From an uncultured archaeon (lineage in GTDB: Archaea; Asgardarchaeota; Thorarchaeia; Thorarchaeales; Thorarchaeaceae), in the NCBI GenBank assembly GCA_964354495.1, contig CAYHAA010000001.1, positions 90,001 to 122,000 on the forward strand: 32,000 bases of DNA. The letters are read 5' to 3'. The position numbers and the translations under genes were made by a program. The notes under the pieces are model-generated. The model saw nothing but the letters and a program-made list of their open reading frames with translations. It was not told the DNA's origin and ran no database searches. This document shows, in pieces, positions 3,193 through 15,780 of this stretch. Positions within the stretch are counted from its first letter, which is position 1; each line of letters begins with the position of its first letter.

Positions 3193-3264
3193 GGCCTAGG
3201 TGGTGTACCGGCAGCATAAGGGATTGTGGCTCCCTTGAAGGGGGTTCGATTCCCCCCCTGGGCC
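3193..3264 (+). tRNA. tRNA-His(GTG), encoded G-1, no encoded CCA
   Basis: Acceptor GCCTAGG/CCTGGGC (3194-3200/3257-3263), D arm GTGT/GCAT, anticodon arm AGGGA-TTGTGGC-TCCCT (GTG 3226-3228), T arm GGGGG-TTCGATT-CCCCC. G3193 lies opposite C73 at 3264. Confidence 0.95.
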
Positions 3265-3384
3265 CTCTATTCCTTCTACTTCGAACCCCGTCAGTTCTTG
3301 TCTTGTCACAAGTTGTGCTGACTCGATTGTTACACTCAAAGCATTAAGTACATAAACAGAATTCTCAGCAACTGCACTATTATT

Positions 3385-6052: not shown

Positions 6053-7723
6053 CTATCCTGCGTAGTGGTTCACGATTGGCATCTTCCAACCCATACCAAA
6101 GGCTCTCTTGGTGATCTTGATACAGGGTGCAGCCTGCCATCTCTTATACTCTGAGCGCCTGATTCTGGCGAGCACATCATCGACTATCTCTGCTGGATAT
6201 CCCTTTGCCATCAATTCCTTCTTGTCTAGTCTGTACTCTACAATATCATCTACCAACGGACTGACAGTATCAAAGTCAAATGGATCATACTGATCTGGTC
6301 GTAGTTCTGCTGAGGGTACCTTCCTGATACTGCTCTCTGGAATGATGTTTCTGCCTGCCTTTGAGTTGATGTACTCAGCCAGTTCATAGACCTGCAACTT
6401 ACTCACGTCGCCGAGTGCGCCCACTCCTCCGGCCATATCCCCATAGAGCGTACAATATCCAAGCGCCAGTTCAGTCTTGTTGCCAGTGTTCAAGACTAGG
6501 ATTCCGAGATCCTTCAGTCGATTAGAGAAATCCATGAGCGAGTTGCTTCGAACTCGAGGTTGGATATTTTCGTCAGCCACCGGGTCATCTGTAGATCTGT
6601 TCACACCAAATATCCGGCGTAAGTCCTCTAGAGGTGTCTTCAGGGTTTCGTGATATTGATTCACAATCTCTTGAATGGAGAACTTGACATAGTGTATGCC
6701 CAGATTCCTCGCAAGCTGCTCGGCATCATCCTTGCTGTGTTGGCTTGAAAAACGAGAGGGCATTGAAACGCCAATCACATTCTCTGGACCCAGAGCATTG
6801 GTTGCGATACAAGCTGACACTGCTGAATCTATTCCGCCGCTCAGTCCAAGGATTGCCCGCGTAAAACCTGTCTTTGCAAAGTAGTCATGGATGCCCAATG
6901 ACAGAGCATCGAACATCTCTTTTTGGCGATTGTATGCCGGTCTTGTTGCTCTCTTGCCTACTCCACGTTCGACATCAAGCTCAACAAGGACAGTATCCTC
7001 CTTGAATGCCTCACCATGGGCTACTAGCTTTCCGGACGCATCTGCACCGACACTTTGTCCGTCGAAGACTAGTTCGTCTTGTCCTCCAACAAGATTGCAA
7101 AGCAAGACTGGGACCCCGTCCTTCTTGGCTCGCGACCTCACAAGTTTCTCTCTCTGGTTTCCTTTTCCCACGAAAAAGGGGGAAGCCGAAATGTTGATGA
7201 TAAGTTGTGCACCTCGCTCAGTGAGCAGGTCTGTCACTTTTATTTCGTACTCGTCATCCCATAGGTCCTCACAGATCTCAACTCCAAGGTATACATCATC
7301 CCCTGCGAGCGTAATTCTGCGCGGGCGAATTTCATCTGGTCTTCCGGGTTCAAAATACCTGTCTTCATCGAATACATCATAGGTTGGCAACAAGGTCTTC
7401 TTGACGATTGCTAGAATCTTGCGATGCGAAACCACAGCAGCACAATTGTACAGTCTCCATTCTTTGTCATAGTCGACGAAGCCTACAACTACTGTCAATC
7501 CGTGGCAATAATGAGATATCTCTTTGATGGCTAACTTGTTCGCCAAGATGAACTTCTTGTTGTATAACAGATCTCGGGGTGGATATCCCGTAATTGCGAG
7601 CTCCGGAAAGACTGCAAGCTCAGCACCGGCTTCCCGCGCCTGTCGAATCCATGTCTCTATCTTCACGACATTACCGTTGATATCTCCCACTGTGGAGTTC
7701 ATCTGAATCAATGCAATCTTCAC
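6053..7723 (-). CDS. nadE: Glutamine-dependent NAD+ synthetase (nitrilase + synthetase domains)
   Basis: Nitrilase triad contexts FPELAITGYPP, KKTLLPTYDVFDE and EICEDLW; synthetase motifs LSGGIDS, NKTELALGYCTLYGD and PSAELRPDQ. Start reassigned to GTG 7723 (MKIALIQMN), preceded by GGTGA. Confidence 0.95.
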   Translation of the reverse strand: MKIALIQMNSTVGDINGNVVKIETWIRQAREAGAELAVFPELAITGYPPRDLLYNKKFILANKLAIKEISHYCHGLTVVVGFVDYDKEWRLYNCAAVVSHRKILAIVKKTLLPTYDVFDEDRYFEPGRPDEIRPRRITLAGDDVYLGVEICEDLWDDEYEIKVTDLLTERGAQLIINISASPFFVGKGNQREKLVRSRAKKDGVPVLLCNLVGGQDELVFDGQSVGADASGKLVAHGEAFKEDTVLVELDVERGVGKRATRPAYNRQKEMFDALSLGIHDYFAKTGFTRAILGLSGGIDSAVSACIATNALGPENVIGVSMPSRFSSQHSKDDAEQLARNLGIHYVKFSIQEIVNQYHETLKTPLEDLRRIFGVNRSTDDPVADENIQPRVRSNSLMDFSNRLKDLGILVLNTGNKTELALGYCTLYGDMAGGVGALGDVSKLQVYELAEYINSKAGRNIIPESSIRKVPSAELRPDQYDPFDFDTVSPLVDDIVEYRLDKKELMAKGYPAEIVDDVLARIRRSEYKRWQAAPCIKITKRAFGMGWKMPIVNHYAG

Positions 7724-10460: not shown

Positions 10461-11162
10461 ATGCACGTACCGGATGGAGTCCTGCCAATTTGGTTGCTCA
10501 TCATACTATACGTTGTCAGTGTTCTCATGTTAGTCGTTTCTGTCAAGATGATAAACAGGAAGTACGACGACAGGCTCGTGCCATACATGGGCGTACTTGC
10601 TGCTGTCATATTCGCAGCGCAGTTCGTGAATTTTCCGGTACCCCCTTCAAGTGGCCATCTAGTCGGTTCTACTCTTCTGGCTGTCATGCTTGGCCCCTGG
10701 GGGGGGATGCTGATCATAGGCATGGTTCTATTCGTGCAGGCACTATACGGTGATGGTGGTTTCCTTTCATACGGACTGAACTTCTTCAATATGGGTGTCT
10801 TCTCCTGCTTGTTGGGATGGGCACTATCTCTGTTGCTTTTCAAAGGCCTAAAACGATTCACAGATGAGAAGAAGTCCGTGCTGTTCTCGACAGCAATCGC
10901 ATCCTATGCAACAACGGTTCTGGCAGCCTTTGTTCTGGGGCTTGAGCTTCTGACCGTTTCTGGATTCGGCATCGCAGCACTATCCGTAATCACTTTGGTT
11001 CACGCCTTCATTGGTGTCGGAGAGGCAATACTGACTTTCGTAATACTTCTCTACTTCGTCAAGGCGAAACCTCAGGTGATATCATTCCTGCGGGAGAGCG
11101 AGGTGTCTGAGATGGCTAAGGTACCAGGAGTTCAGGTGCCAAAAGTGCAGATTGAAGGTTGA
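10461..11162 (+). CDS. nikM: ECF Ni/Co transporter substrate component (NikM/CbiM)
   Basis: N-terminus MHVPDG (NikM-type MHxPDG), FAAQFVNFP, SGHLVG, QALYGDGG, HAFIGVGEAILT. Preceded by GGAGG. Confidence 0.92.
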   Translation: MHVPDGVLPIWLLIILYVVSVLMLVVSVKMINRKYDDRLVPYMGVLAAVIFAAQFVNFPVPPSSGHLVGSTLLAVMLGPWGGMLIIGMVLFVQALYGDGGFLSYGLNFFNMGVFSCLLGWALSLLLFKGLKRFTDEKKSVLFSTAIASYATTVLAAFVLGLELLTVSGFGIAALSVITLVHAFIGVGEAILTFVILLYFVKAKPQVISFLRESEVSEMAKVPGVQVPKVQIEG

Positions 11163-11452
11163 AGATAATGGACAGAGAAGAAGCGATTCGATACGGGACT
11201 CCACTTGTCCTAGCAGTATCCATTGTGACAGCTGTCGTCATTCTTGGAGCCGCCTCTCAGAATCCTGATGGATTCGAGTGGTCGTTATTTGACTTCGCTG
11301 GTGTTACTGAACCCGAAGGTGGATTTGGAGGAATCTGGTCCTTCTTGGGAAAAGGCGTGGTGGTCGATGTCGCTACAGGAGTCATAGGCATTATTGCAAT
11401 TCTGCTCCTAGGATATGGCTTCTTTTGGGTCGTTTCCAGGAGAAGCGATTGA
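11159..11452 (+). CDS. nikN: PDGLE-domain accessory component (NikN-like)
   Basis: ASQNPDGFEW (PDGLE-like) between two TM helices. Overlaps the nikM stop. Confidence 0.8.
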   Translation: MKIMDREEAIRYGTPLVLAVSIVTAVVILGAASQNPDGFEWSLFDFAGVTEPEGGFGGIWSFLGKGVVVDVATGVIGIIAILLLGYGFFWVVSRRSD

Positions 11453-11497
11453 ACAGCTGCAACCTCCGAAGTTGTGTGAGGTACGGGGCGTTTCGAT

Positions 11498-12277
11498 ATG
11501 AGCAAGTTCCTGCTTCCATTCCGTGAAGGGCACCACACAATTCGTGTCTTCTCGCCAACATCAGTGGTGGTGGCATCACTTGTCATGGCGGCAGTTCTAT
11601 CAGTTCAGACTCAGGTACCAATGGTGTTCTGGTCGATTGGACTCGTCCTCTTCATTGGTGTTGTCACTGGAACTAGATGGAAAACTGTACTTGCGCTTGC
11701 CGCAAGATTCGAAATCATCATACTATTCTGGATTATACTGCTTCCCTTTCTCTTCGGAAGCACGGTCATATACTCCCTGCCTGCGCCCTGGGGCCGACTG
11801 CTTGTATTTCAGGAAGGTCTAGAGTTGGGAGTTCTCATTGGTCTACGTATTTTTGCCATTGTGACTCTCTTCATGATTGTTCTCTCGCATCTATCCTTGG
11901 CTGAGTTCATCGGTGCCTTGAGGACGCTCAGGGTTCCCTCTTCAGTGCTTGGTTCACTCTTGATCATGCTGCGCTATATCCCGCTCTTCATTGAGGAGCG
12001 GCACAGAATGCATGACGCTCAGCAACTGAGAGGCCTCGCACAGGGCGAGCGGAGAGAGAGAGTCCAGTCGCTTGGATTCCTTGTTGGCTCCACGATCGAC
12101 CGGGCGATGGTCAGAAGCAATGTTGTCTATGAATCCATGACTCTTCGCGGCTTTGGTAGGGGGATGGCCGTTGTTGGTGCAGGAGTAAGAAAGAATGACT
12201 TCCTGCTATTCTTCGGTCTCGTTATTCTAATTCTCGTTCTTCTCAATTGGCAAATGCTGGCGGTGATGCTACAATGA
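11498..12277 (+). CDS. nikQ: ECF transporter transmembrane T component (NikQ/CbiQ)
   Basis: ALRTLRVP, LRYIPLFIEERHRMHDAQQLRG, AMVRSNVVYESMTLRGF. Confidence 0.9.
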   Translation: MSKFLLPFREGHHTIRVFSPTSVVVASLVMAAVLSVQTQVPMVFWSIGLVLFIGVVTGTRWKTVLALAARFEIIILFWIILLPFLFGSTVIYSLPAPWGRLLVFQEGLELGVLIGLRIFAIVTLFMIVLSHLSLAEFIGALRTLRVPSSVLGSLLIMLRYIPLFIEERHRMHDAQQLRGLAQGERRERVQSLGFLVGSTIDRAMVRSNVVYESMTLRGFGRGMAVVGAGVRKNDFLLFFGLVILILVLLNWQMLAVMLQ

Positions 12278-13026
12278 CTTGCGCGCTAGAGATCAATCAT
12301 CTGTATTTCAGCTACAAGGACTTTTCGCTTGAAGATGTGAACATGAGTCTCCATCTCAGTGAACAGAAGGCTCTTGTTGGTCTGAACGGGTCAGGCAAGA
12401 CGACATTGTTGAAGCTCATTGTTGGACTTCTTGAGCCCGAGTCTGGATCTATTCATATCTTTGAGAGGAAAGTTGAACGTGACAACCTGTGGGCGATACG
12501 AAGGGATGTCGGGTTCCTCTTTCAGAATCCGGATGACCAACTCTTTGCTCCGACTGTCTGGGAGGATGTCGCATTCGGGCCGAGGAATCTTGGAATGGCA
12601 CAAGATGAGGTTGAGGAACGAGTCGAATGGTCTCTCGGGATGGTGGGCATGTCCAACCTCGCCGACCGTCCTGTCAATCAGATAAGTCATGGAGAAACAA
12701 AGCGTATTGCTCTTGCTGGAATCATCGCCATGCGTCCGAAGATCCTCCTATTGGACGAGCCCTTTGCAGGTCTCGATTTTCCGATGATATCCACGATGGT
12801 TGATATAGTGCGGAACCTACGGAATGAGGGGATCAGTGTTCTCTACACGACTCATGACCGATTCTTCCTTGAGAACTGGGCAGACTCAGTGGCTGTCTTA
12901 CATGATGGCAAGCTGGTTTATGATGGCCCTGTAGAACGTGCTCTCCAAGACGCGTCCATTAGACAGCAGACTGGTGACTGGGATGCATTACGACATCGGA
13001 TGAGAGAGTATCGCGGACTTGCCTGA
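12274..13026 (+). CDS. nikO: ECF transporter ATPase (NikO/CbiO)
   Basis: Walker A GLNGSGKT, FQNPDDQLFAPTV, ISHGETKR signature, LLLDEP. Start ATG 12274 forms an ATGA overlap with the nikQ stop. Confidence 0.92.
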   Translation: MTCALEINHLYFSYKDFSLEDVNMSLHLSEQKALVGLNGSGKTTLLKLIVGLLEPESGSIHIFERKVERDNLWAIRRDVGFLFQNPDDQLFAPTVWEDVAFGPRNLGMAQDEVEERVEWSLGMVGMSNLADRPVNQISHGETKRIALAGIIAMRPKILLLDEPFAGLDFPMISTMVDIVRNLRNEGISVLYTTHDRFFLENWADSVAVLHDGKLVYDGPVERALQDASIRQQTGDWDALRHRMREYRGLA

Positions 13027-13039
13027 AACTGCGATATGG

Positions 13040-13046
13040 TTAAATG
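13040..13046 (+). promoter_or_regulatory. TATA-like element of tRNA-Leu
   Basis: TTAAATG about 30 nt upstream of the tRNA 5' end. Confidence 0.5.
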
Positions 13047-13074: not shown

Positions 13075-13192
13075 GCGGAGGTTGCCAAGCCTGGTCAAAG
13101 GCGTAGGGTTCAGGTCCCTATCTCGTAGGAGTACGCGAGTTCAAGCGACCAAGAGTTACTCTTAGTCGGAACATATCTCGCCCTCCGCACCA
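13075..13192 (+). tRNA. tRNA-Leu(CAG) with 30-nt T-loop intron, encoded CCA
   Basis: Acceptor GCGGAGG/CCTCCGC, D arm GCC/GGC, anticodon arm TAGGG-TTCAGGT-CCCTA (CAG 13111-13113), variable arm CTC-GTAG-GAG. The T arm GCGAG-TTCAA[intron]AT-CTCGC is restored by removing 13145-13174. ACCA at 13189-13192. Confidence 0.93.
13145..13174 (+). other. tRNA intron at non-canonical position 58/59 with BHB motif
   Basis: Central helix GTTC(13139-13142)/GAAC(13169-13172), 3-nt bulges AAG and ATA, intron stem CGAC/GTCG plus AAGAG/CTCTT. Confidence 0.9.
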
Positions 13193-13205: not shown

Positions 13206-13733
13206 CTAAACGCCGTCCTGTACCCGCGGCTCCATAAGAATAGTAATCTCACGACCAAGTAAGTGCCTAGTGAGCTTGATTCCCATATCTATCCTCACGA
13301 TGATATTTGGTTCTTGTGTGTGTTCATTGAAATAAATCTTCACCCAGAGGCTCAACCGGTCTTCAGGTACTGCGTACAGGTAAAGATTGTTTTCCTCATT
13401 CTCATATGGTTCTACACGAATTCCAATACCCTCGTGTCTATTCACCTTTGAGGAGGCATCCTGCTCTGAATCATAGAAATCCACATGCAAAAAGAATTCC
13501 TCCTCCTCGGGCGCTATCCAGACTGTAAGAGAGTATTCCCAATCATATGTTGGATCAAGCTCAGGGTTGTTCTCAAGAATAATCCGATCTATGAGATTGA
13601 TTGCGTACACTGTGACCGGCGGTATGAGGAGCAGCAAGATGATTACTGCGATGAGTCTCCTATTCTTATGGAGCCACCCTCTCCCAGCTGGCGCTTCCTC
13701 CACATTGTACACCCATCTGATAATGGATACCAA
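13206..13733 (-). CDS. Single-pass membrane protein with beta-rich soluble domain, unknown function
   Basis: One hydrophobic segment LIAVIILLLLIPPVTVYAI followed by alternating beta-strand-like sequence. The start may be GTG 13703. Confidence 0.65.
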   Translation of the reverse strand: MVSIIRWVYNVEEAPAGRGWLHKNRRLIAVIILLLLIPPVTVYAINLIDRIILENNPELDPTYDWEYSLTVWIAPEEEEFFLHVDFYDSEQDASSKVNRHEGIGIRVEPYENEENNLYLYAVPEDRLSLWVKIYFNEHTQEPNIIVRIDMGIKLTRHLLGREITILMEPRVQDGV

Positions 13734-13888: not shown

Positions 13889-14341
13889 TCATTCATCATC
13901 ATCGGGAAGGATGAACATGGTCTCTATCCGCTGCACACCCTCAAGCCCCTCAAGCTCCCCCGTAATGAAACGGGTAAGTTCAGCTATGTCTTTGACACGC
14001 ACCCTAAGTATGAAGTTAGCAGGACCCGCGGTCCTCAATATTTCCGATACCTGCTCATAATCTGATAGTCGAGCACAGAGTTCTCTTGATGCACCTGGTT
14101 TGGCTGTTATCTGCACAAGAACCTGAATATCGAATCCCATTTTTCTGTAGTCAATGTCCACAGTGTATCGCTTAATCACACCAATCTCAACAAGGTGTTC
14201 CATCCTATTGCGAATTGAACTTGGGCTCAGGTTCACCTTCTTTTTGATATCCCTAAGTGAAATCCTTGCATTCTTGGATAGAATCTCTATGATTTGAAGG
14301 TCTTTGTCATCAACTCTATCCATTGAATCCATATTGACCAT
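13889..14341 (-). CDS. Lrp/AsnC family transcriptional regulator
   Basis: DDKDLQIIEILSKNARISLRDIKKKVNLSPSSIRNRMEHLVEIGVIKRY HTH plus RAM domain. Confidence 0.93.
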   Translation of the reverse strand: MVNMDSMDRVDDKDLQIIEILSKNARISLRDIKKKVNLSPSSIRNRMEHLVEIGVIKRYTVDIDYRKMGFDIQVLVQITAKPGASRELCARLSDYEQVSEILRTAGPANFILRVRVKDIAELTRFITGELEGLEGVQRIETMFILPDDDE

Positions 14342-14361: not shown

Positions 14362-14763
14362 TTATGCTGTCTTTACTCTGGTAATAACACGTCGATTCAT
14401 TAATTCCCAGACTTCAACCTCACTGTTGAGGCTTATCTGTGTGAGAAGATCCTGATCTGTTGGCTTGGGGAGGTCATAGGTCTCGAAGGACTCAGTGTCC
14501 ATCAGGCTATAGTTTTCTCCAGTGTCAGCAATCACCGTGGCAATTCTCTTGTTGATGACTGGTACATCTACCATCCGGTCTGCAGGCATGATGACATTAC
14601 GTTTCCTGTTATCAAAGAAACCAACTGCAATGATGTTTGCCTTTGCGGCACCATGTTTTCCAGGCTTGGACTTATCCATAGACACAACTCTACATGGTTC
14701 GTCATCAATTACCATATACGCTCCGGGCTTCAAGCTCTTTGCTTCAGCTTTTCTAATATCCAC
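14362..14763 (-). CDS. eif5a: Translation factor aIF5A
   Basis: Hypusine loop SKPGKHGAAK, IDDEPCRVV, LMDTESFET. Confidence 0.97.
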   Translation of the reverse strand: MDIRKAEAKSLKPGAYMVIDDEPCRVVSMDKSKPGKHGAAKANIIAVGFFDNRKRNVIMPADRMVDVPVINKRIATVIADTGENYSLMDTESFETYDLPKPTDQDLLTQISLNSEVEVWELMNRRVITRVKTA

Positions 14764-14898: not shown

Positions 14899-15780
14899 AT
14901 GTGCCTGTCAGTGATCGTACGGAACCCTCAGATACTCAGTGAGAAGCAAGCCGTGGGACTTGTGTGCAAGCCCGGTCGCACCGAGGTAGTCCCTCTTGCG
15001 CAACGCATAGTCGAGCTTCTTCTTTCCAAGGGTATCGAGATTCAGGCAGACCCGGGATCTCTCAGTCTTCCTGATATGATAGTAAAGCCAACCCCAATAG
15101 AGGATATGGATGTGGATTTTGTCATCACTATCGGTGGAGACGGTACGATTCTCTACACATTGTCGCAATTGAAGGATCGCGAAACACCCCTCTTTTGTAT
15201 CAATCGCGGGACTGTTGGATTTCTCACGGAGAGTGGAACAACCACAGCATTAGCCTCTCTTGGGCGAGTACTTACAAACGACTGCATCATTGAGGCCAAC
15301 GTGAACATAAGTTCAGGCGTTGGCGAGAGGGTTTTTCCCAGTGCTCTCAATGAGGTCTACGTGGTATCGAAGTTACCCGGAAGACTTCTGACACTGCAGA
15401 TTATTCTAGATGGCGTGCAAGTTGACTATGGAAGGGCAGATGGTGCGATGCTCGCGACACCTTGTGGGTCTACTGCCTATGCACTTGCTGCAGGAGGCTC
15501 AATATTAACACCAGATGTGAACGGCTTTGTCTTCGTTCCGGTGTGTGCTCCAAGATTTGAACTGAAGTCCATGGTGATTCCCGACTACTCCAAATTGGAA
15601 TTTGAACTAGTGAAGCCCGGCGCTCCCGGTCTCGCAGTCATTGATGGCCAAACACGATGGGACGTCGAACCCAATGAGAGAGTATGGTTGAAGAAGTCCG
15701 AGAAAGTGACACGCTTCATCCGGCTCTATAACAACTACTACGACCGTCTGAACACACGGCTTGTTCCAAGGACTCTCTAG
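14899..15780 (+). CDS. nadK: NAD(+) kinase
   Basis: GGDGTIL, INRGTVGFL, LNEV, ADGAMLATPCGSTAYALAAGG, DGQ. Confidence 0.95.
   Translation: MCLSVIVRNPQILSEKQAVGLVCKPGRTEVVPLAQRIVELLLSKGIEIQADPGSLSLPDMIVKPTPIEDMDVDFVITIGGDGTILYTLSQLKDRETPLFCINRGTVGFLTESGTTTALASLGRVLTNDCIIEANVNISSGVGERVFPSALNEVYVVSKLPGRLLTLQIILDGVQVDYGRADGAMLATPCGSTAYALAAGGSILTPDVNGFVFVPVCAPRFELKSMVIPDYSKLEFELVKPGAPGLAVIDGQTRWDVEPNERVWLKKSEKVTRFIRLYNNYYDRLNTRLVPRTL

Follow-up and report, generated by a model that had tools for sequence, protein, structure and literature searches.

Bulge-helix-bulge (BHB) introns in the T arm of tRNA genes were described in the Thermoproteales (Marck & Grosjean 2003 and Sugahara 2008, as cited in Yoshihisa 2014, PMC4090602). 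In the portion of that review used here, the known non-canonical positions include 53/54, 56/57 and 59/60, and 58/59 is not among the positions given there. In Asgard archaea, T-arm introns are reported as a main class of tRNA intron (bioRxiv 10.64898/2026.10.13.758758; PMC11291895). In three Asgard genomes 92-95% of tRNA genes are interrupted (Valentin-Alvarado 2024, PMC11291895), and the Asgard introns called in the preprint concentrate at 37/38 and in the T arm, where insertions most often form canonical BHB motifs; intron gains are repeated and often terminal (10.64898/2026.10.13.758758). The statement in a preliminary description of the present locus, that T-loop introns are mainly described in Thermoproteales, is thus out of date, also in view of their frequency in the genome and family studied here. 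On the side of the enzymes, Kaneta 2018 (PMC5829648) reported an (alpha-beta)2 EndA with an L1 loop across Asgard archaea, a Thorarchaeote being among those surveyed, and expected that disrupted tRNA genes lie undetected in Asgard lineages.

The locus described here is most probably (at about 0.85) a working Thorarchaeote tRNA-Leu(CAG) gene with a 30-nt intron of the EndA/RtcB type between A58 and A59, the splicing being predicted from the sequence. It shares several features with the T-arm introns of Thermoproteales, in that the intron is short, lies outside 37/38, would be spliced by proteins and is variably present among close relatives. Its BHB is likewise built from exon and intron, so that the precursor must take a fold other than the cloverleaf, and the host appears, as Thermoproteales hosts do, to possess an alpha/beta EndA of broad substrate range. 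Unlike those cases, the host is an Asgard archaeon (Thorarchaeota) and the introns are very uniform in size, at 28-31 nt. Introns at 58/59 have probably also been recorded in Thermoproteales surveys. With the surveyed Asgard introns (PMC11291895, 10.64898/2026.10.13.758758) the present one shares the phylum and the frequency of non-canonical introns; those studies focus on Atabeyarchaeia, Freyarchaeia and Jordiarchaeia, whereas the present gene is from Thorarchaeota and has a single intron, and the word Thor is absent from the main text of the preprint. What is added here, for one genus, is polymorphism at the level of the locus and an intron family common to Leu(CAG) and Leu(GAG) genes.

The tRNA-Leu(CAG) gene and its splice junction

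The window, i.e., the whole stretch of 32,000 nucleotides that was analysed, holds at 13075-13192 (+) a class II tRNA-Leu(CAG) gene, as read directly from its sequence. The 5' exon (13075..13144, tRNA positions 1-58) comprises the acceptor 5' strand, the D arm, the anticodon arm, a long variable arm, the T-stem 5' strand and TTCAA, while the 3' exon (13175..13192) consists of A59, T60, CTCGC, CCTCCGC, A73 and an encoded CCA. The 7-bp acceptor stem is formed by GCGGAGG (13075-81) and CCTCCGC (13182-88), and the D arm has a 3-bp stem and a long loop. The anticodon arm carries the stem TAGGG/CCCTA and the loop TTCAGGT, with CAG at 13111-13113, and is followed by a variable arm of 14 nt (13121-13134). 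The 5-bp T stem pairs GCGAG (13135-39) with CTCGC (13177-81), and the discriminator A73 stands at 13189, just before CCA (13190-13192). Together with a T loop of the form TTCRANY, the long variable arm, CAG, A73 and the lengths of the acceptor and T stems are those of a class II tRNA-Leu. Between A58 (13144) and A59 (13175) lies the 30-nt intron (13145..13174, +), which is without counterpart in syntenic intronless orthologues and is present in seven related genes.

Neither ARAGORN nor the Rfam tRNA model, run on the window and on the whole genome, calls the unspliced gene, and the single call of each in the window is tRNA-His. Once 13145-13174 is removed in silico, ARAGORN recovers the cloverleaf of an 88-nt tRNA-Leu(cag) with the T loop TTCAAAT. 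The junction is unique, since the T arm GCGAGTTCAAATCTCGC is regained by joining 13144 to 13175 and in no other way; the predicted spliced product reads GAGTTCAA up to the joint and ATCTCGC beyond it. The resulting arm, GCGAG-TTCAAAT-CTCGC, is the same as in the Leu(UAG) and Leu(GAG) genes of this genome, and intronless Leu(CAG) orthologues in related genomes have the T loop TTCAAAT or TTCGAAT. The gene anatomy and these calls agree with the preliminary description, which had proposed a tRNA-Leu(CAG) with a 30-nt BHB-type intron at 58/59, cut after the second nucleotide of each bulge to yield TTCAAAT, and had cautioned that standard finders may miss the gene. No second Leu(CAG) gene is found in the 97.7%-complete assembly by ARAGORN, the Rfam tRNA model or BLAST with the gene. 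All five Leu isoacceptor genes are each found once in the genome, whose sole tRNA-Leu(CAG) gene appears to be the one at 13075-13192. The gene need not be essential, as tRNA-Leu(UAG) could read CUG by wobble.

In this 97.7%-complete genome ARAGORN reports just 33 tRNA genes, and 26 score above the cut-off of the Rfam model; the isotypes left uncalled include Val, Thr, Ile, Phe, Tyr, Trp and Asn. Some of the introns that ARAGORN does report are implausible, such as 1836 nt in a Lys CTT call (C5:88752-90682) and 469 nt in a Pro TGG call (C6:25944-26505), the latter directly downstream of the EndA beta-like gene discussed below. A tRNA-SeC(tca) is called at C7:73844-73934, in agreement with the reported selenocysteine machinery of Asgard archaea. 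The tRNA-His(GUG) gene of the window (3194-3265, +) is intronless and is called by both programs (52.2 bits with Rfam).

The tRNA-Leu(CAG) gene occupies an interval of 180 nt that begins at the stop of a cbiM-N-Q-O type transporter operon and is bounded on the other side by a convergent 175-aa ORF, in the interior of a contig of at least 541 kb; the assembly (G000 in our numbering) has 51 contigs and an estimated contamination of 3.8%. At 13032..13046 (+), 29-43 nt upstream of the mature 5' end, is a promoter-like motif, CGATATGGTTAAATG, containing the TATA-like GGTTAAAT. A motif CGATAYGGTTAAAWG stands at this same constant distance in all genus-level orthologues, whatever their intron state, and CGATATGGTTAAATG may serve as the promoter. 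A point against a working gene is that the T-run 3' of it is short (CTTTC). The upstream cbiM-(N)-Q-O cobalt/ECF transporter operon spans 10461-13026. The convergent ORF (13206-13733, -) matches no Pfam family, and its neighbours encode an Lrp/AsnC regulator (13889-14341), aIF5A (14362-14763) and an NAD kinase (14899-15780).

Predicted precursor fold, candidate splicing enzymes and competing explanations

In the unspliced precursor, the exon sequence G53-T54-T55-C56 (13139..13142, +) would pair with GAAC of the intron (13169..13172, +), and thereby form the 4-bp central helix of a BHB. The bulges on the opposite strands are AAG (13143..13145, +), with a predicted 5' cut at 13144/13145, and ATA (13173..13175, +), with a predicted 3' cut at 13174/13175. 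The topology is that of the canonical BHB, in which flanking helices enclose the motif, each bulge lies 3' of its central-helix strand and each cut falls 2 nt 3' of the helix. The inner helix is the conserved intron hairpin (13146..13168, +), where CGAC/GTCG is extended, via a C.A mismatch and AAGAG/CTCTT, to about 9 bp closed by the loop TTA; this hairpin is also present in the MFE fold. The outer helix could take one of two forms, either a shifted helix of 2 bp with a strict 3-nt 3' bulge, or the first four T-stem pairs with a relaxed 3' bulge of 5 nt (ATATC).

Four explicit folds of the unspliced gene were compared by energy. With all 5 bp of the T stem formed and the hairpin standing in an open loop, the energy is -40.7 kcal/mol; with four T-stem pairs (49-52/62-65), the central helix and the ATATC bulge it is -38.9 kcal/mol, with the central helix but no outer helix -35.6 kcal/mol, and with the shifted G13137-C13177 and A13138-T13176 pairs of the strict form -34.2 kcal/mol. 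The fold with four T-stem pairs is thus better than the shifted form by 4.7 kcal/mol and lies 1.8 kcal/mol above the cloverleaf-type fold, and the scissile bonds are identical in both BHB-like folds. According to this modelling, a splicing-competent fold would need the opening of G53-C61 only, and the shifted 2-bp outer helix is possible, but neither favoured nor required. The central helix has a probability of about 9% in the unconstrained ensemble, where the MFE fold has the full T stem and an open 6x8 internal loop, so the BHB would have to be captured, selected or induced by the enzyme. Every pairing, bulge and intron stem listed in the preliminary description is found in the sequence, including the shifted pairs; its 2-bp exon-side helix could form, although the energies prefer four T-stem pairs. 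Its further claim, that splicing requires unzipping of the T stem and so must precede T-loop folding and modification, is overstated as regards the stem, of which only one pair would have to open. It is structurally sound as regards folding, since with T54-C56 held by the intron the T-loop/D-loop elbow could not form before splicing, and splicing may precede modification as well.

The proposed pathway would proceed by a heterotetramer-type endonuclease, with catalytic alpha and structural beta subunits, cutting each strand 2 nt 3' of the central helix, after which RtcB would join A58 to A59. Ligation would have to come before G53-C61 can pair and before the T loop TTCAAAT can take shape and dock on the D loop. 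The genome encodes the candidate enzymes. Two genes match PF01974, at 104.6 and 75 bits. One of them (C7:64663-65229, 188 aa) is a full-length match to the catalytic subunit of Aeropyrum pernix EndA (3P1Z_B, E 1.1e-42), with the catalytic Tyr, His and Lys conserved, the His being located by means of the deposited His-to-Ala variant 3AJV_B; it shares 65-93% identity with proteins from MAGs titled Candidatus Thorarchaeota. Its alignment with the A. pernix protein has no gap across the N-terminal stretch GQP...KP...PL, which we take to be the Crenarchaea-specific loop. The other (C6:24412-25050, 212 aa) has Asn at the catalytic His position of M. jannaschii EndA, and this replacement fits a structural beta subunit. 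An RtcB ligase is also encoded (588 bits), such that both a splicing endonuclease of the type for non-canonical sites and a ligase are present in the host. Assembly of the two EndA proteins into a heterotetramer, and its substrate range, are suggested by these sequences together with the Asgard survey of PMC5829648. Among modification enzymes, a TrmI/GCD14 homologue is encoded at C4:175990-176508, while Trm56 (PF01994, the Cm56 methyltransferase) is not found in this genome and is found in four of four archaeal control genomes. C56 is part of the central helix in every 58/59 precursor.

Conservation of the structure was assessed in an alignment of eight copies of the intron, which comprise 7 distinct sequences. 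In the hairpin, 6 of 10 pairs have changed on both sides across relatives, a number of double changes that was reached by only 3 of 500 shuffles. The central helix is 100% paired in the 7 sequences, with one change from G-C to G-U, and paired cells amount to 91%, vs 31-52% when the partner strand is slid. Since there are just 7 distinct sequences, related to each other, this covariation is modest evidence. The GGAA before the 3' bulge is invariant and the next base is C or T, while the rest of the intron has diverged, down to 11-27 identities out of 30. The occurrence of the same 30-nt insert at the same place in seven other genes, with six helix pairs changed on both sides, takes the insert beyond chance.

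The intron may conceivably be processed through a relaxed motif, where the 5-bp T stem stays intact, the hairpin stands in an enlarged T loop and the enzyme acts on a bulge-helix-loop substrate with GTTC and GAAC unpaired. The MFE and centroid folds do keep all five T-stem pairs, leaving GTTCAAG and GAACATAT unpaired, and relaxed motifs are reportedly accepted by EndA with an L1/CSL loop (PMC5829648). Nevertheless, this is unlikely, as GGAA(C/T) is invariant in an otherwise diverged intron and always pairs with G53-C56, 58/59 introns that are unrelated to this one, in other tRNAs and in other Asgard families, also end in GGAAYA, and without the central helix the cut sites would be measured by nothing.

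Much less probable is a decaying or silent copy from which the insertion is not removed, with CUG being read by tRNA-Leu(UAG). Such a copy might be missed by standard finders, as this gene is, and the tRNA-Leu(UAG) gene is present and intronless; yet both exons are undamaged and do not differ from those of paralogues that look functional, compensatory changes have preserved the structure in eight genes from eight species, the promoter motif has been conserved, and another Leu(CAG) gene is not found in the genome. An artefact of assembly or binning, i.e., a chimeric contig or mis-joined repeat, could be suspected in view of the 51 contigs and the contamination estimate, but can hardly be credited. 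Seven further genome assemblies, independent of this one, show the same architecture, and the gene sits well inside its contig in a syntenic context; among contigs of public runs, X3 has a near-identical gene and intron, and X12, from the same study, has the variant of the congener G012. A self-splicing or mobile element was also considered and rejected, since 30 nt are too few to contain a ribozyme or an ORF and the intron is placed exactly with respect to the GTTC helix. Removal by EndA and RtcB is a prediction from sequence, and the intron is almost certainly functional in this sense.

Distribution and turnover of T-arm introns

BHB motifs were enumerated over the whole genome (central helix of 4 bp, inner helix of at least 3 bp, 12-100 nt), and the 601,079 candidates were filtered by requiring a restored T arm and an acceptor partner. 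Nine tRNA genes remain as convincing cases, their T arms being interrupted by an intron of 28-32 nt; isotypes, where stated, are those given by ARAGORN after splicing. Position 58/59 is occupied in Leu(CAG), in Thr(GGU) (C15:66716-66745), and at C6:89131-89158 and C18:38681-38710; 59/60 in Glu(UUC); 56/57 in Leu(CAA) and a Met gene; and 53/54 in Thr(CGU) and at C18:16230. ARAGORN with combinatorial removal of candidate introns gave no settled isotype for C6:89131, C18:38681 or C18:16230. A fifth case at 58/59 (C26:7195-7240, intron about 7202-7230) is added by a covariance model built for T arms interrupted at this position, and the genome thus has at least five introns at 58/59 and at least nine in the T arm. 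The Leu(CAG) intron is like the others in its layout, N-C...G-GAAC-A-N, in its length (28-30 nt among them), in a hairpin of roughly 10 bp and in the use of GTTC for the exon half of the central helix; the tRNA bodies differ, and the hairpins are mostly unrelated, except that of C6:89131, which is like the Leu introns.

The covariance model was applied to 151 genomes of the phylum (150 and the present one). It matches 30 of 37 genomes of the family, with 1-6 matches each, and 13 genomes in four other Asgard families, while in 18 further families of the sample there are zero matches; all such counts are lower bounds, because the model leans on Leu/Thr-like T arms. Eight of the matches outside the family were read, and all eight have the T stem, TTCRA and the acceptor strand, together with a hairpin of 30-31 nt whose end is GGAAYA or TGAAYA; among them are three Leu-like genes from another family. 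T-loop introns of about 30 nt are therefore a common class in this genome, in its family and in other Asgard lineages, and the Leu(CAG) intron is an ordinary member of it. Another Asgard family is represented by a complete genome in which two Leu-like tRNA genes lie next to each other (L095 and L096, G125:C1:1888060-1889131; acceptor 3' strands CCTCCGC and TCTCTGC); each of the two has a 30-nt 58/59 intron ending in GGAATA and further inserts that defeat ARAGORN.

At the level of the genus, a DNA search of 60 relatives recovers the gene over its full length, with the same insert of 30 nt, in three congeners, while many orthologues match only to position 68-70 of the gene; positions 1-70 match the intronless orthologues at 90-93%. 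When the 3' part of the gene is searched against 87 genomes of the order, the intron family is found in the genus only, where it occurs in 8 of 28 genomes, in four Leu(CAG) and four Leu(GAG) genes. By reading of the orthologues, the 58/59 intron is in Leu(CAG) of the genome under study and of G012, G017 and G006, and in Leu(GAG) of G001, G007, G024 and G002. Leu(CAG) is without an intron in at least eight congeners; an intron of about 30 nt stands at the border of variable arm and T stem in G014, G022, G026 and other genera, and Leu(CAG) of G034 has a 53/54 intron. The 3' exon is identical in all Leu(CAG/GAG/UAG) genes read in the genus. The upstream cbiO is syntenic in 15 loci, which include all four intron states, and in its tree (a single gene, midpoint-rooted) the present genome and G006 are sisters, while G017 falls below congeners with no intron or a variable-arm intron. 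The intron predates the species and is polymorphic within the genus.

Two Leu(GAG) genes deserve separate mention. In the present genome, that of C21:27957-28074 (-) is identical to Leu(CAG) over its first 46 nt except for C34/G34, and is interrupted directly after the anticodon stem, on the side of the variable region, by an intron of about 30 nt, which ARAGORN misreports as an anticodon-loop intron, i(42,24). In G017, an intronless tRNA-Leu(GAG) (C204:2894-2981, L045) has C at position 33, in the loop TCGAGGT. As U33 is almost universal in tRNAs, this may be a variant or an assembly error.

Possible intron movement and its implications

A tentative and rather speculative idea is that the 58/59 intron is a portable cassette. 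As G53-T54-T55-C56 is nearly universal, any tRNA could, with no adaptation, accommodate and splice out a hairpin of about 30 nt that ends in GGAACA. Such portability would explain the presence of one intron family in Leu(CAG) of four species and Leu(GAG) of four others, the alternation of 58/59, 53/54, variable-arm and no intron at the Leu(CAG) locus, and the recurrence of 58/59 introns in five Asgard families. It would also explain the intron of C6:89131-89158, in which 16 of 20 unconstrained columns equal those of the Leu(GAG) intron of G024, a likeness which hints at a transfer of the intron family from one kind of tRNA gene to another. It could have spread by gene conversion, given paralogues whose 3' halves are identical, or by reverse splicing. 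The gene containing that intron (C6:89040-89185, +) has the acceptor stem GGGTCGG/CCGGCCC, A73 and CCA, and bears an insert in the anticodon loop in addition to its 28-nt 58/59 intron.

The tRNA-Leu(CAG) intron reveals no new mechanism. It adds a well-resolved example to the known picture of many non-canonical tRNA introns in Asgard archaea, with eight homologous copies, syntenic intron-free alleles and compensatory changes, and it offers a clean substrate for defining the range of Asgard EndA. Since finders miss such genes, tRNA counts and estimates of codon capacity for Thorarchaeota MAGs will be wrong as long as T-arm introns are left out of the models. What is of most interest lies in the evolution of the intron, namely the sharing of an intron by two isoacceptors, its likeness in a different tRNA gene, and its turnover at one orthologous locus. 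How archaeal tRNA introns move is an open problem (10.64898/2026.10.13.758758), and, if the intron is indeed portable, this genus would offer, in its Leu genes, a natural series well suited to its study.
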